Shown: positions 26,085-64,000 of the stretch, in pieces
How the letters are laid out: each line of letters starts with the position of its first letter
Position numbering within the stretch: position 1 is the first letter of the stretch
From: Eledone cirrhosa
Taxonomy: Eukaryota
Reading direction: 5' to 3'
DNA length: 64,000 bases
Assembly (NCBI GenBank): GCA_964016885.1
Contig: OZ024741.1
Coordinates: forward strand, 164,796,001 to 164,860,000
Notes under the pieces: model-generated
Databases searched by the model: none
Told to the model about the DNA's origin: nothing
What the model saw: only the letters and a program-made list of their open reading frames with translations
Program-made: the position numbers and the translations under genes

Positions 26085-26680
26085 CCACACCAATCTCGCT
26101 GTGGTTCCACCATGGACTCTTTCGGCCTCCACTTGCTTTCCGGCCGCATTCCATGCCATGCTGGCCTCAACGAGGTCATTAAGCATGGCTTGGACGCTGC
26201 AGGCTTCCCTTCCCAGCTAGAGCCGGTGGGGCTGGATCGAGGGGACGGCAAAAGGCCAGATGGCATGACCATCTTCCTGTTCCGCAGTGGAAAACCCCTC
26301 GTCTGGGATGCCACTTGCACCGACACTTTCTGCAGCCGCAACCTGGTGCAGTCTGCGACTGACCCGGGTTCTGCTGCACGTCAGGCTGAGGGGGCCAAAC
26401 TCCTCAAATACTGGTCACTCTCCGACAGGTTTGCGGTCGTACTCCTGGCAGTGGAGACTTCTGGTGTCCTCGGCCCCAGGGCTACCTCCTTACTCACCAC
26501 CATAAGCGCTGAGCTGGCCAGCCGCAGGTGTGAGCCCCGCGAGTTGGAGTGGCTCTTCCAGCGCGTCTCCCTCGCCATCCTCCGGGGAAACGCCTTCTCC
26601 ATTCTGTCCGCTGTGGCTGTGGGTGAGCCCCATCGTGTACCGTTGTAGCTGTTGTAGAAGAAACAGGAAGACAACAACTC
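26085..26680 (+). mobile_element. CRE-clade-like non-LTR retrotransposon 3' fragment (restriction-like endonuclease)
   Basis: ORF 26112..26648: D.FGLHLLS..H..LN..RPDGMT..GKPLVWDATC.DT..E.AK..KY..AVETSG..LFQRVSLAILRGN; GC-rich island. Confidence 0.8.
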
Positions 26681-28668: not shown

Positions 28669-28673
<5 letters not shown>

Positions 28674-28745
28674 TACAAACGGACAAAGCGGGCGTTATAA
28701 TAAACGTCCGCTAAACTGAAACGTACATATATGTATGTGTACCTG

Positions 28746-28809
<64 letters not shown>

Positions 28810-29238
28810 TGCTACTGTACGTCTGTATACATATATGTATGTACGTATACATACATACTTACATTTAAGTAAGTGCCGTACTAAGAGTGAGAAATGAAAT
28901 TTCGTTTTCATTCTATTACAACTTATCGTTCTCGGTGCGCCTGGCCGACTGAACTCACTCGATATGCAAATTAGGCTGCTCAGCCGTTAATTTTCATAAG
29001 GAAAGTATATACTTTCGAACGTTCAACCATCTGGCAGAAGGGTATACGGTGCTGATGATAGCTAAGAAGCTTGAAACTAGTACATCGTTCCTGTGTCAGT
29101 GTTGAACAAAAAGGTGACGTGGTTGCCTTAACATCGTACGGCATAAATTCAGGCTGTTCGTTTGTTTACAAACGGACAAAGCGGGCGTTATAATAAACGT
29201 CCGCTAAACTGAAACGTACATATATGTATGTGTACCTG

Positions 29239-29292
<54 letters not shown>

Positions 29293-29406
29293 TGCTACTG
29301 TACGTCTGTATACATATATGTATGTACGTATACATACATACTTACATTTAAGTAAGTGCCGTACTAAGAGTGAGAAATGAAATTTCGTTTTCATTCTATT
29401 ACAACT

Positions 29407-29409
<3 letters not shown>
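28669..29409 (+). mobile_element. Partial-tandem (A-B-A) non-coding element, monomer ~483-493 bp, with a hammerhead ribozyme; retrozyme or Penelope pLTR-like
   Basis: A1 28669-28926 and A2 29162-29409 match except for (TA)n length; B 28927-29161 contains the HHR; (TA)n on both flanks; CpG-rich. Confidence 0.8.
29046..29088 (+). ncRNA. Minimal type I hammerhead ribozyme (family 1)
   Basis: Stem I acggtg/catcgt; core CTGATGA; stem II t-AGCT-aaga-AGCT-t; GAAA; palindromic stem III ACTAGT; GUA cleavage triplet, cut predicted after 29082. Confidence 0.75.
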
Positions 29410-40199: not shown

Positions 40200-42120
40200 A
40201 ATAATTGTTTCTACTTTAGGCACAAGGCCAGCAATTACCCAGTACATTACTGGTACTTTATTTTATCGGGCCCGTAAGGATGAAAGGCAAAGTTAACCTC
40301 AACGGGATTTGAACTCAGACTGTAAAGAAACGTAACTATGCTGCAAAGCATGGCGTCCGACCCTCTACCGATACTGCCAATAATAATTATTATCATTATT
40401 TCTACTATAGGCACAAGGCCAGCAATTTGGGGAGAGGGGGAAAGTCACTTAAATTGACCCCAGTGCGTGACTGGTACTTTATTTTATCGACCCCCGTAAG
40501 GATGAAAGGCAAAACAAACCTCAGCTGGATTTGAACACAGAACATAATAATTATAACTGTTTCTACTTTAGGCACAGGCCAGTAGCTTTGGGAGAAAGGG
40601 TAAGTTAATTAAATTGACCCCAGTGTATTACTGGTGCTTTATTTTATCGACCTCCTAAGGATGAAAGGCAAAGTTACCCTTGGCAGGATTTGAACTCAGA
40701 ACATAATAATGGTTTCTTATATAGGCACAAGGCCAGCAATTTTTTGGGGAGGGGAAAGTCGATTAAATCAACCCCAGTGCATTACTGGTACTTTATTTTA
40801 TCGACCCCTGTAAGGATGAAAGGCAAAGTTACCCTTGGCAGGATTTGAACTCAGAACATAATAATGGTTTCTTATATAGGCACAAGGCCAGCAATTTTTG
40901 GGGGAGGGGAAAGTCGATTAAATCAACCCCAGTGCGTGACTGGTACTTTATTTTATCGACCCCCCGTAAGGATGAAAGGCAAAGCTACCCTTGGCAGGAT
41001 TTGAACTCAAAACATAATAATAAGCAGCAATGTTTGGAGAAGGGGAACATTATTTGTTGGGTATTTTATTTTATCAGCCATGGAAGTACGAAAGTTAAAG
41101 GTCACCTCAGCAGGATTTGAACTCAGAACATAGAGTAGAGTAGCAGGTATAATAATAATAATAATAATATTTCTACTTTTGGCACAATACCAGCAATTAC
41201 CCCAGAGCATTACTGGTACTTTATTTTATCGACCCCGTAAGGATGAAAGGCAAAGTTAACCTCGGCGAGATTTGAACTCAGACTGTAAAGGGACATAACT
41301 ATACTAGAAAGCATGGCGTCCAACCCTCTACCGATACTGCCAATATAATAATAGGGAATAATTGTTTCTACTTTTGGCACAATACCAGCAATTACCCCAG
41401 AGCGTTACTGGTACTTTATTTTATCGACCCCGTAAGGATGAAAGGCAAAGTTAACCTCGGCGAGATTTGAACTCAGACTGTAAAGGGACATAACTATACT
41501 AGAAAGCATGGCGTCCAACCCTCTACCGATACTGCCAATATAATAATAGGGAATAATTGTTTCTACTTTTGGCACAATACCAGCAATTACCCCAGAGCGT
41601 TACTGGTACTTTATTTTATCGACCCCGTAAGGATGAAAGGCAAAGTTAACCTCGGCGAGATTTGAACTCACAACGTAAAGAGCCATAACCCTATGCTGCA
41701 AAGCATGGTTTCTGACGCTCTACCCATACTGCCAAACAAATAATAATGATAATAATAATAATAATTGTTTCTACTTTAGGCACAAGGCCAGCAATTATCC
41801 AGTGCATTACTGGTACTTTATTTTATCGACCCCGTAAGGATGAAAGGCAAAGTTAACCTCGGCGGGATTTGAACTCAGATCGTGAAGGGATGTAACTATG
41901 CTGGAAAGCATGGCGTCCGACCCTCTACCGATACTGCCAATCCACCGCCTTAATAATAATGGTTTCTAATTTAGGCACAAGGCCAACAATTTTGGGGGAG
42001 AGGAAAGTTGATTACATTGATCACCAGTAAGTGATTGGTACTTTATATTATCGAATCTGAAAGGACGAAAGGCAAAGTCAATCTTGGCAGGATATGAATT
42101 CACAACGTAAAGCACCAGAT

Positions 42121-53334: not shown

Positions 53335-55870
53335 TGACAGTTACTTTACTTCACTGAAAACATGTCCTTATCCCCATCCAGCTACATGAAATCACCCTAA
53401 ACACTATTTACTTCATCATCTAGCTACATATTAACCTAAACACCTCCAACATCATTACTATCTAGCTATATGTAACCACTCCAAACACTACCAAACATTA
53501 TCAGCTACATTAATGGCATGACCTTAAACATCTCCCATGCTACAATCTAGCTACATGACCACCCTAAACACCTCCCACGACATCATCAAGCTACATGACA
53601 CCAACCTAAACTGCTCTCTACCCCATCACCACTTAGTTACCAGCAACCACCCTAAACACTTTCTTCCTTATCATCAAGCTACATAACGCCCACCTTAAAC
53701 CCCCTCCACATCAAGCTACATGACCACCTTAAACACCACCTACATCATCATTTAGCTACATTACACTACCCTAAACACTTCTCACAGCAACATTAAGTTG
53801 CATGAAATCACCTTAAACACTTCCCACATCATCACCATTTAGTTACATAATGCCACATTAAACACCTCTCACATTATCACCATTTAGCTACATAACACCA
53901 CATTAAACACCTTCCACATCATCATCAGTTACCAACATGAAACCACCCTAAACACTTCCCACACAATCATCATCAAACTAAATGAAGCCACCCTAAACAC
54001 CTCTACCATAATCTAGCTATATAACACTAACATCAACATTATCACAATCTAGCTACATGAAGCCACCCTAAACACCTCCCACATCACAAAATAACTATAC
54101 AACACCACCTTAAACACCTCCCACATCATCACAATCTAAACATTTCAACATCAACATCATTTTACTATAGTCAATCTGTCTAAATAACATCATAGTTATA
54201 GTTATCTAGCTACAAACATCTCCTAAACACTTACTTCATCATCATCTAGTTACAGCCTACCTACCTAAACACTTACTTCATTGTCATCTAGCTACAGTCA
54301 ACATCCTAAACAATGCCTACATCATCAACATCCCTAAACGCTTCCCACAACATCAACATCTAGCTACAGTCAACATCCCTAAACACTTCCCACAACATCA
54401 ACATCTAGCTACAGTCAACATCCCTAAACACTTCCCACATCTTCAATATCTAGCTACAGTCAACATTCCTAAACACTTCCCACATCAACATCTAGCTACA
54501 GTCAACATCCCCAAACACTTCCCACAACATCAACATCTAGCTACAGTCATCATCCCTAAACACTTCCCACATCATCAACATCTAGCTACAGTCAACATCC
54601 CTAAACACTTCCCACATCATTAATATCTAACTACAGTAAACATCCCTAAACACTTCCCACATCATCAACGTCTAGCTACAGTCAACATCCCTAAACACTT
54701 CCCACAACATCAACATCTAGCTACAGTCAACATTCCTAAACACTTCCCACAACATCAATATCTAGCTACAGTCAACATCCCTAAAAACTTCCCACAACAT
54801 CAATATCTAGCTACAGTCAATAGCCCTAAACACTCCCCACAACATCAATATCTAGTTACAGTCAACATCCCTAAACACTTCCCACAACATCAACATCTAG
54901 CTACAGTCAACATCCCTAAACACTTCCCACAACATCAACATCTAGCTACAGTCAACAGTCTTAAACACTTCCCACATCATCAACATCTAGCTACAGTCAA
55001 CATCCCTAAACACTTCCCACAACATCAACATCTAGCTACAGTCAACATCCCTAAACACTTCCCACAACATCAACATCTAGCTACAGTCAACATTCCTAAA
55101 CACTTCCCACAACATTAACATCTAGCTACAGTCAACAGTCCTAAACACTTCCCACATCATCAACATCTAGCTACAGTCAACATCCCTAAACACTTCCCAC
55201 AACATCAACATCTAGCTACAGTCAACATCCCTAAACACTTCCCACAACATCAATATCTAGCTACAGTCAACATCCCTAAACACTTTCCACAACATCAATA
55301 TCTAGCTACAGTCAACATCCCTAAACACTTCCCACAACATCAACATCTAGTTACAGTCAACATCCCTAAACACTTCCCACAACATCAATATCTAGCTACA
55401 GTCAATAGCCCTAAACACTCCCCACAACATCAATATCTAGCTACAGTCAACATCCCTAAACACTTCCCACAACATCAATATCTAGCTACACTCAACATCC
55501 CTAAACACTTCCCACATCATCAACATCTAGCTACAGTCAACATTCCTAAACACTTCCCACAACATCAACATCTAGCTACAGTCAACAGTCCTAAACACTT
55601 CCCACATCATCAACATCTAGCTACAGTCAACATCCCTAAACACTTCACACAACATCAACATCTAGCTACAGTCAATAGCCCTAAACACTTCCCACAACAT
55701 CAATATCTAGTTACAGTCAACATCCCTAAACACTTCCCACAACATCAATATCTAGCTACAGTCAATAGCCCTAAACACTTCCCACATCAACATCTAGCTA
55801 CAAACACTTACTTCATCCCCATATAGCTACAGTCAATCTTCCTAAACACTTTCTGTGTTGTCCCCATCTA
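53335..55870. repeat. 45-bp satellite (ctacagtcaacatccctaaacacttcccacaacatcaacatctag); degenerate to ~54300, homogeneous ~54330-55800
   Basis: Direct; period 45. Confidence 0.95.
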
Positions 55871-57619: not shown

Positions 57620-58335
57620 AATAATCGTTTCTACTTTTGGCACAAGGCCAGCAATTTGGAGGGGGGGGGGAGAGGAAATCGACTCCAGTGTATTACTGGT
57701 GCTTTATTTTATCAACCACTTAAGGATGAAAAGAAAAGCTAACCACAGTGGGATTTGAACACAGACCATAAAGGGCTGTAATTTTATGCTGCAACGCATG
57801 GCGTCCAATAATAATAATAATAATTGTTTCTACTTTTGGCAGAAGGCCAGCAAGTACCCAGTGAATTACTGGTACTTTATTTTATCGACCCCGTAAGGAT
57901 GAAAGTCAAAGTTAACCTCGGCGGGATTTGGAGTAAAACCGTAAAGGGACGTAACTATGCTAGAAAGCATGGCGTCCGACCCTCTACCGATACTGCCAAT
58001 TCACCGCCCTATAATAATAATTGTTTCTACTTTTGGCACAAAGCCAGCAATTATTCAGTGCATTACTGGTACTTTATTTTATCGACCCCGTAAGGATTAA
58101 AGGGAAAGTTAACCTCGGCGGGATTTGAACTCAGAATGGCAAGGGCCGCAACTTTATGCATCATAGCATGGCGTCCGACCCTCTACCGACACTGCCAATC
58201 CACCTAATAATAATTGTTTCTACTTTAGGCACAAGGCCAGCAATTACCCAGTGCATTACTGGTACTTTATTTTATCGACCCCGTAAGGATGAAAGGCAAT
58301 CCACCTAATGAAAGGCAATCCACCTAATAATAATA
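57620..58335 (-). mobile_element. SINE group A tandem cluster (~4 copies)
   Basis: Repeated reverse-complement units. Confidence 0.92.
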
Positions 58336-62510: not shown

Positions 62511-64000
62511 CCACTGTAAAGTGGTCGTGTAGGTGACACGGCAAAAAGCACCCAGTCCACACTGTAAAGTGGTCGTGTAAGAGACACAACAAAAAGCACC
62601 CAGTCCACACTGTAAAGTGGTCGTGTAAAAGACACAACAAAAAGCACCCAGTCCACACTGTAAAGTGGTCGTGTAAGAGACACAACAAAAAGCACCCAGT
62701 CCATACTGTAAAGTGGTCGTGTAGGTGACACAACAAAAAGCACCCAGTCCACACTGTAAAGTGGTCGTGTAAGAGACACAACAAAAAGCACCCAGTCCAC
62801 ACTGTAAAGTGGTCGTGTAAGAGACACAACAAAAAGCACCCAGTCCACACTGTAAAGTGGTCGTGTAGGTGACACAACAAAAAGCACCCAGTCCACACTG
62901 TAAAGTGGTCGTGTAGGTGACACAACAAAAAGCACCCAGTCCACACTGTAAAGTGGTCGTGTAGGTGACACAACAAAAAGCACCCAGTCCACACTGTAAA
63001 GTGGTCGTGTAGGTGACACAACAAAAAGCACCCAGTCCACACTGTAAAGTGGTCGTGTAAGAGACACAACAAAAAGCACCCAGTCCACACTGTAAAGTGG
63101 TCGTGTAAGAGACACAACAAAAAGCACCCAGTCCATACTGTAAAGTGGTTGTGTAGGTGACACGGCAAAAAGCACCCAGTCCACACTGTAAAGTGGTTGT
63201 GTAAGAGACACAACAAAAAGCACCCAGTCCACACTGTAAAGTGGTCATGTAAGAGACACAACAAAAATCACCCAGTCCACACTGTAAAGTGGTCGTGTAG
63301 GAGACACAACAAAAAGCACCCAGTCCACACTGTAAAGTGGTCGTGTGGGAGACACAACAAAAAGCACCCAGTCCACACTGTAAAGTGGTCGTGTGGGAGA
63401 CACAACAAAAAGCACCCAGTCCACACTGTAAAGTGGTCGTGTAGGTGACACAGCAAAAAGCACCCAGTCCACACTGTAAAGTGGTCGTGTAGGTGACACA
63501 ACAAAAAGCACCCAGTCCACACTGTAAAGTGGTCGTGTAGGTGACACAACAAAAAGCACCCAGTCCACACTGTAAAGTGGTCGTGTGGGAGACACAACAA
63601 AAAGCACCCAGTCCACACTGTAAAGTGGTCGTGTGGGAGACACAACAAAAAGCACCCAGTCCACACTGTAAAGTGGTCGTGTAAGAGACACAACAAAAAG
63701 CACCCAGTCCACACTGTAAAGTGGTCGTGTGGGAGACACAACAAAAAGCACCCAGTCCACACTGTAAAGTGGTCGTGTAAGAGACACAACAAAAAGCACC
63801 CAGTCCACACTGTAAAGTGGTCGTGTAGGTGACACAGCAAAAAGCACCCAGTCCACACTGTAAAGTGGTCGTGTAGGTGACACAACAAAAAGCACCCAGT
63901 CCACACTGTAAAGTGGTCGTGTAGGTGACACAACAAAAAGCACCCAGTCCACACTGTAAAGTGGTCATGTGGGAGACACAACAAAAAGCACCCAGTCCAC
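62510..64000 (+). repeat. 48-bp tandem array (at least 31 units, runs off the window) expanded from the RTE 3' UTR repeat
   Basis: Unit cagtccacactgtaaagtggtcgtgt(aggtg/aagag/gggag)acacaacaaaaagcacc; 16-aa periodicity in the overlapping ORFs. Confidence 0.97.

Follow-up and report, generated by a model that had tools for sequence, protein, structure and literature searches.

The element studied here occupies positions 28669 to 29409 of a 64,000-nt stretch of Eledone cirrhosa DNA (the window) and has (TA)n on both flanks. Two A blocks enclose a B block, and 10 nt of (TA)n is the sole difference between the former. This is the A-B-A layout described in the first-pass annotation of the window, which had read it as 1.5 head-to-tail copies of a ~490-bp monomer within a (TA)n tract; the unit measures 493 nt. 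The following features define the insertion.

28669..29409, + strand: whole insertion, 5' truncated, 1.5 turns of the 493-nt unit, 3' end at the outer site, within a (TA)n tract
28669..29161, + strand: one full unit, 493 nt, numbered q1 to q493 (q1 = 28669)
28669-28926: A1 block, 258 nt
28927-29161: B block, 235 nt
29162-29409: A2 block, 248 nt
28746..28806, + strand: internal (TA)n at the apex of a long hairpin; its length differs between copies and is short in the 420-nt subfamily

A reading of the A-B-A layout as an LTR pair was rejected, as A is the overlap of 1.5 turns, that is, part of a second unit. The element contains no LTR, PBS, or PPT (tRNA primer sites were judged without a dedicated scan tool), and any target site duplication, which in non-LTR retrozymes exceeds 4 bp where one is present, is unreadable here because the flanks consist of (TA)n. 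The duplication of A is not an assembly artifact, as the same partial-tandem layout recurs at many other loci. The unit has a low GC content, and the CpG richness previously noted corresponds to an observed/expected ratio of 1.73 for the element versus 0.38 for the window. The longest open reading frames over the element are small, those of at least 50 amino acids (aa) being 50 to 68 aa long and mostly crossing the TA repeat, in agreement with the earlier statement that no real frame is present.

Elsewhere in the window, a 178-aa open frame at 26112-26648 resembles the end of a LINE-type endonuclease region. There are also tandem arrays at 40399-41941, 57814-58299, 54325-55802, and 62512-64000, with units of 155 to 197 bp, 45 bp, and 48 bp; a simple scan of these four arrays revealed no hammerhead core.

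A type I hammerhead with an extended stem I

The B block carries a type I hammerhead ribozyme motif, with the palindromic stem III and the predicted cut already recognized in the first-pass annotation.

29046..29088, + strand: type I hammerhead ribozyme motif, predicted cleavage after 29082 (q414)
29046-29051 with 29083-29088: core part of stem I
29052-29058: hammerhead core
29060-29071: stem II, 4 bp with a tetraloop, U.U at its base
29076-29081: stem III, palindromic, 6 nt
29021..29107, + strand: extended stem I, ~22 bp, keeping both sides of the cleavage site together (helices 10 to 13, 97 to 99% of cells paired)

The term "minimal" that had been applied to this ribozyme does not fit. In the minimal hammerheads of Penelope-like elements (PLEs), only the core remains and helix elements are missing; here, helix II is present and stem I reaches ~22 bp, leaving stem III as the only short, palindromic helix. 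The extended stem I has a stability z score of -2.74, and none of 200 shuffled sequences was as stable. The U.U closing pair at the base of helix II, previously raised as a caveat, is indeed present and is unusual but has a precedent in the axolotl hammerhead HHR_Amex2 (PMC7229834). On its predicted fold, the ribozyme is closer to HHR_Amex2 than to the stripped PLE motif, and the element is predicted to cleave itself. The proposed Rfam/Infernal check returned only a subthreshold hammerhead match, to HH9 (18.1 bits against a cutoff of 52; E value, 0.38); no curated Rfam family reached its cutoff on the element, and the Rfam microRNA matches were TA-repeat artifacts.

Conserved RNA structure

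From 87 full-length candidates, 32 copies were chosen to span the subfamilies and were aligned to a 103-pair structure. The proportion of cells paired was 98.5%, against 25 to 48% in slid controls, the cells representing related sequences rather than independent events. Ten pairs had changed on both sides across subfamilies, a count that, taken alone, was equaled by 45 of 500 shuffles. One-sided changes led mostly to G.U wobbles on the + strand. Two of the helices with changes on both sides are located as follows.

28687..28712, + strand: hairpin with two-sided changes at 4 of its 9 pairs when subfamilies are compared; second copy at 29180-29205 (helix 17)
28874..28880, + strand: 5' strand of a long-range helix with partner 29137-29143, two pairs changed on both sides (helix 3)

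The structure of the RNA thus appears to be under selection, and a stable, conserved, self-paired RNA of this kind is a property of non-LTR retrozymes.

A high-copy-number family with two main subfamilies

The locus is one of a large family. Pattern searches of the genome returned 413 exact 40-mers and 24,753 degenerate 34-mers of the ribozyme motif and no match to reversed control patterns, and a DNA search of the same genome recovered many copies at 97 to 99% identity. The degenerate ribozyme matches put the copy number at ~25,000, of which a few hundred were inspected. The fetched loci held 407 ribozyme anchors distributed over 196 arrays, of which 129 were single, 37 double, and 16 triple, and the longest had 57 units; there is one type I hammerhead per tandem unit, and unit lengths are ~420 to 540 nt. 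The two main subfamilies have units of ~490 and ~420 nt. The element or parts of it also occur in four contig sets of three organisms, with identical subfamily variants. Conservation of the ribozyme core, on which the first-pass annotation had made its reading depend, is evident: the core is intact in 262 of 287 dispersed copies, and the frequent variants affect a tolerated seventh core position, loop II, and a G.U/U.G pair in stem I.

A few loci expanded later at the DNA level into satellite arrays. In the parts fetched, 63 of 81 ribozyme cores were intact in the array at C2:60.568-60.612 Mb (L061 to L065), which has a higher-order repeat of ~8 units, and all 39 were intact in that at C2:122.655-122.678 Mb (L142, L071, and L072). 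The 4-kb spacing of ribozymes at C2:60.58 Mb was considered as a possible full-length PLE and was rejected, as it corresponds to the higher-order repeat.

Two fixed 3' ends and the PLE tail

The ends of the copies are highly informative with respect to how the family inserts. Their positions in this copy are as follows.

29335..29350, + strand: zone in which copies of the family have their inner 3' end (q191-197), coinciding with a conserved stem-loop; putative inner priming site
29343..29406, + strand: 64-nt "tail", bounded by the two 3' end sites and present a second time at 28860-28923
29406-29409, + strand: outer 3' end site (q255-258), the 3' end of this copy

The 3' ends of 309 arms were assigned, leaving out two large arrays, arms less than 300 nt from a locus edge, and hits of less than 84% identity or shorter than 29 nt. 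The outer site accounted for 124 ends, the inner site for 109, and the internal TA run for 35, with 41 elsewhere. Other repeats have inserted into the internal (TA)n at L007, L013/L145, L029, and L153, and some of the TA-run ends are therefore secondary interruptions. In most of the copies displayed, the 3' end is followed by (TA)n, a pattern read by eye rather than counted. The 5' starts lie anywhere in the unit, and arms span from a fraction of a unit to ~7 units. The circularly permuted ends proposed as a sign of a circular RNA template are thus found at the 5' side; the 3' ends, in contrast, fall at two set positions within the unit, separated by 64 nt, where there is 2 to 5 nt of TA microhomology.

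About half of the arms (158 of 309) sit in head-to-head junctions. Among the 79 such pairs, both ends lay at the two main sites in 41, and every one of these had one end of each type (41 of 41; none with the same site twice); one of them (L190) is present twice as a local duplication. An independent, cruder motif check classed 24 pairs as mixed, none as same, and 1 as ambiguous, with 54 not fully classed. In 9 of the 41 pairs, the outer-site arm is just the tail, of 55 to 76 nt, and outer-site arms halting at q165-210 occurred in 13 of the 41 pairs but in only 2 of 68 solo arms (P = 4 × 10^-5). Reciprocal collision of the two arms, a sign expected only of a circle, gave no signal: inner-site arms exceeded one turn in 27 of the 41 pairs and in 38 of 52 solo arms.

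These insertions carry the PLE "tail" signature, which is described as unique to PLEs (PMC11167929). The PLE protein of an anole starts reverse transcription at two internal sites that bound the tail, cuts and extends both DNA strands, and is predicted to form a dimer (PMC11167929), and an optional tail at one end of inverted PLE insertions has been reported (PMC8557442; PMC3846280). Several features of nonautonomous PLEs are seen here, namely, two 3' ends bounding an optional tail, 5' truncation, partial tandems, an adjacent inverted copy that is itself 5' truncated, and AT-rich or microsatellite targets.

Penelope-like elements and the partner question

The genome is rich in PLEs: of 10,597 candidates, 150 gave scored GIY-YIG matches. 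Long open frames that match RVT_1 and GIY-YIG and encode a Cys linker of the Neptune/Nematis type occur in several of them; this label follows the linker as described in PMC8557442 and not a tree. The family represented by L146 (L146 and L147, also L305 to L334) is ~5 kb long, with a 938-aa open frame containing RVT_1, GIY-YIG, and the Cys linker; it is a young PLE, classed by that linker as Neptune type. It has 16,942 exact end motifs, targets (TA)n, and has a 63- to 66-nt tail. Among 30 loci, all 8 close pairs (6 labeled automatically and 2 by eye) had one tailed and one untailed arm; a possible exception is the 3.7-kb head-to-head arrangement at L328/L329, with two tailed ends. Further families with long open frames (636, 604, 1,096, and 768 aa) are found at L149, L150, and L110, at L148, and at L065:6035-8338. 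The L149 family has a standard-core hammerhead and likewise has two alternative ends in (TA)n. The terminal hammerhead core is nonstandard in the L146 and L097/L105 families.

No terminus shared with the retrozyme was found by blastn and nhmmer against 35 PLE loci, where the only significant nhmmer matches were inserted copies. The likeness between the ends of the retrozyme and those of L146 is weak (reached by 66, 9, and 3 of 1,000 null comparisons for three subfamilies) and out of register, the outer site of the retrozyme being aligned with the inner site of the PLE. A search for adjacent PLE frames had been proposed at the outset; neither the unit nor the sequence in register upstream of the inspected copies contains an RT or GIY-YIG frame. 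Mobilization of the retrozyme by a PLE is strongly supported, and we regard it as highly probable; the element is likely copied by a PLE enzyme.

A predicted internal promoter of the U6 type

The octamer at 28964 singled out in the first-pass annotation is present and is better read as part of a host U6-type proximal promoter element.

28963..28975, + strand: match to the host U6/U6atac proximal element, containing the octamer; predicted internal promoter
29006..29012, + strand: TATA-like box, 42 nt after the proximal element; predicted start at ~29036-29041

The host proximal element is a 13-nt motif at -77 to -79 in three independent U6 promoters and one U6atac promoter, with a TATA box at ~-30. 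The motif was built from these four promoters; 13 of the additional U6 hits and 9 of 10 U6atac hits, all lacking a promoter, were left out as probable pseudogenes. The retrozyme scored 18.4 to 19.3 bits, compared with 12.3 to 15.2 for true promoters left out of the motif. None of 2,000 null sequences reached its match, and the 128,000 window positions yielded one hit. The distance from the proximal element to the TATA box is 42 nt in the retrozyme versus 46 to 48 nt in host U6/U6atac promoters (4 to 6 nt shorter). The predicted start falls just before stem I.

An element of this type is absent from the host U1 and U2 promoters, which have an AT-rich motif at ~-92, a short motif at ~-57, and a TATA-like box. 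Four nucleotides of the retrozyme also match the -57 motif, and they are separated from its TATA box by the same distance as in U1/U2. The host snRNA promoter loci compared were L231 to L233 and L295, and L243 to L245 and L275 to L285; tandem clusters of U6, U2, and U1 genes lie at C19:31.78-31.84 Mb, C3:307.35-307.45 Mb, and C2:180.97-181.0 Mb, respectively.

In insects, the spacing between the proximal element and the TATA box can track the choice of polymerase. Conserved spacing and a role of the element's sequence are described in PMC1761439. For the full unit, Pol II is a better guess than Pol III because the T6-T7 runs in the major subfamilies would stop Pol III, and the element is probably transcribed by Pol II. 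The predicted internal promoter is the least secure step of the mechanism considered below.

Template and mechanism of insertion

The tandem junctions preserve the cleavage site with great precision. Spacing across the predicted cut was exact in 323 of 324 copies having both flanks; a further 46 copies lacked the right flank, at a rate like that of two control spans. The 5' ends do not accumulate at this site. Counts of TA-joined 5' ends were 21 for the cleavage site and 19 for a control position located 23 nt upstream of it. A hazard analysis of 200 arms, from which L191 to L200 (selected on the 5' end) and arms lacking a complete ribozyme were excluded, gave a stopping rate of ~2.3 per kb and no excess either at q410-420 (1 observed versus 2.5 expected) or at the predicted start at q360-377 (10 versus 11.8). 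Extra 5' ends near the predicted start had appeared at first look and were removed by this analysis. The absence of a pileup at the cleavage site favors a circular template. In addition, a cleaved linear monomer primed at q258 would give at most 278 TA-free bases, and 81 of the 124 outer-site arms are longer.

Variants private to one locus bear on the number of templates per array. In 68 multiunit loci, such variants were present in every covering unit in 11 cases, in part of the units in 21, and in a single unit in 180; random pairs of loci shared 0.016 doubletons per pair. At L163, a private variant occurred in 7 of 7 units on both strands; L143 gave two such cases of 7 of 7, and L069 gave one of 5 of 5. 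L066 has eight identical units across both orientations. The 21 variants found in only some units, among them an ABAB pattern in L187, indicate that dimers or DNA-level events occur too. The private-variant test replaced a comparison of distances, the outcome of which did not favor one template per array: the median distance within arrays was 1.66%, against 1.06% to the nearest other locus, a best-of-many and therefore biased comparison, and the distance within was the smaller in 20 of 54 arrays. Units of less than 200 aligned nt were left out of both tests.

Taken together, the data lead us to favor, with reasonable though far from full confidence, a high-copy-number, protein-free non-LTR retrozyme with the two-site tail signature of PLEs, likely mobilized by a Neptune-type PLE and probably templated by a self-cleaved and religated circular RNA. 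The first-pass annotation had offered a retrozyme copied around a circle or a PLE partial tandem as alternatives, and the two are joined here in a retrozyme-type unit with a PLE signature. Transcription would start a few bases upstream of the hammerhead, from the internal U6-like proximal element and TATA box. Two successive hammerheads would then excise a monomer, perhaps acting as a dimer through the palindromic stem III, and the long stem I may keep the monomer ends together for ligation, steps suggested by the structure and its conservation. At a (TA)n target, the pattern of ends suggests that the two cut strands each prime at a different one of two fixed RNA sites, which lie 64 nt from one another; the enzyme would presumably be that of a PLE, and the products are head-to-head arms with the tail on only one. 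Copying passes the cleavage site precisely and stops at random, as recorded in the copies, and the A-B-A of the window represents 1.5 turns. A circular template is the simplest reading, given the junctions and 5' ends; against it, 8 of 9 Xenopus retrozyme dimers failed to cleave (bioRxiv 10.64898/2026.07.22.740005).

The template might instead be a long, uncleaved linear multimer transcribed from tandem loci, also mobilized by a PLE, with the hammerhead acting late or only in trimming. In vitro, the anole PLE worked mainly on unprocessed RNA and had no need of hammerhead cleavage (PMC11167929), and multimeric RNAs exist beside circles in the axolotl (PMC7229834). The weak stem III, the large arrays (with 81 and 39 units anchored by a ribozyme in the portions retrieved), and the variants confined to part of an array also fit such a template. 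However, 5' ends show no excess at the predicted start, and internal priming and truncation can only ever shorten a linear template. Dispersed arrays of 7 to 9 units have private variants in each unit, and the identical L066 units run in both orientations. The core and the end-joining stem are, moreover, conserved across subfamilies, and on balance we consider the multimer unlikely. Precise end-to-end template jumps of the RT on a cleaved linear monomer could also produce tandem units; such jumps have been proposed for Penelope (PMC3846280), and the long stem I would hold both ends adjacent. The near-invariant junction and the lack of 5' ends at the cut would require the jumps to be nearly perfect and to add no bases, which makes this mechanism quite improbable.

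Least probable of all, and to be given very little weight, is that the family is no more than a terminal repeat (pLTR) orphaned from an autonomous PLE yet to be discovered, or else a satellite that spread at the DNA level. Xenopus retrozymes resemble PLE pLTRs, and local amplification has been proposed for them (bioRxiv 10.64898/2026.07.22.740005); satellite-like arrays do exist here, and the copies inspected are a few hundred of ~25,000. Against a pLTR, those inspected copies that reach far enough 5' run into the previous unit rather than into an open frame, and a relaxed hammerhead pattern recovered point mutants only, among the matches listed (100 of 190). Against a satellite, unequal crossing-over yields neither defined 3' ends nor inversions, and ribozyme cores show more decay in one of the large arrays (63 of 81 intact) than among the dispersed copies (262 of 287).

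A more specific form of the favored circular-RNA reading, which we advance tentatively and would not expect to hold in full, is that the element is a circular RNA parasite of a PLE, with its own U6-type promoter before the ribozyme, and that a dimeric Neptune RT-endonuclease takes one priming site of the circle per subunit and cut DNA strand and rolls around it. If so, the 41:0 rule would account for PLE tails and head-to-head inversions generally, with the Neptune family of the 938-aa frame in this genome as the identified partner.

Relation to known retrozymes and nonautonomous PLEs

The element has the tested features of both non-LTR retrozymes and nonautonomous PLEs, and both kinds are already known. 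Metazoan non-LTR retrozymes of coral, mussel, and axolotl (HHR_Amex2) similarly consist of short noncoding tandem units with one type I hammerhead each, low GC content, high self-pairing, and no LTR, PBS, or PPT, and a PLE has been proposed as their mobilizer (Cervera and de la Pena 2020, PMC7229834). The unit of 420 to 490 nt is at or above the upper end of the 150 to 450 bp quoted there. The family differs in its internal (TA)n hairpin, its PLE tail and head-to-head arms, and the lack of a discernible target site duplication, and its circular RNA is a prediction. It also has a predicted internal promoter, whereas retrozymes seem, in the account of a 2020 review (PMC7761336), to lack promoters. 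Newt satellite 2 is a hammerhead tandem repeat with an internal snRNA-type promoter used by Pol II (cited in PMC2220036); in comparison, the family described here consists of dispersed young insertions with PLE ends, and its promoter is predicted from host U6 genes only.

Among nonautonomous PLEs, MRC1 of Chlamydomonas (Craig et al. 2021, PMC8557442) and the pLTR and tail structures described by Frangieh et al. (2024, PMC11167929) share the head-to-tail multicopy insertions, 5' truncation, inverted 5'-truncated partner, one-end tail, microsatellite targets, and two internal start sites. The retrozyme is distinguished by a hammerhead with helix II in each unit, a tail of 64 nt rather than 30 to 40, TA microhomology of 2 to 5 nt at the start sites, and no clear 3'-end homology to an autonomous family. 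A partnership with PLEs has also been proposed for the non-LTR retrozymes of Xenopus, which likewise range from monomers and dimers to long arrays (Li et al. 2026, bioRxiv 10.64898/2026.07.22.740005); the evidence described there is co-occurrence and sequence trees across 35 species, with no mollusc among them, whereas here it is the insertion signature itself.

A link between retrozymes and PLEs has thus been proposed (PMC7229834; PMC7761336) and is supported by trees in frogs (bioRxiv 10.64898/2026.07.22.740005), while the mobilizing enzyme of animal retrozymes and the circle as template were stated to be open (discussion of PMC7229834; PMC7761336). The openly accessible octopus and cephalopod literature searched on hammerheads, retrozymes, and Penelope did not describe this family, a retrozyme with a tail, or a one-site-per-arm count; a prior listing elsewhere, as in Repbase or Dfam, is possible. 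The mechanistic evidence tying a retrozyme to PLEs is unusually direct here. One genome holds both a retrozyme with the PLE-specific tail and a young PLE whose frame is open and whose ends are the same, and the points of priming and stopping are preserved in thousands of nearly identical copies. The published in vitro PLE assay (PMC11167929) makes direct tests possible of the partnership, of the circular template, of the one-site-per-strand rule, and of the origin of the PLE tail. An internal snRNA-type promoter, if true, would change the view of retrozymes as dependent on read-through.

Another tandem hammerhead family, unrelated to the first and built of 310-bp units, was found at L163:5437-6990 (+), L032 (-), and L021 (+). 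Its ribozyme is built in the same way, with U.U at the base of helix II, a tetraloop, and a palindromic 6-nt stem III, and the family is a probable further retrozyme.
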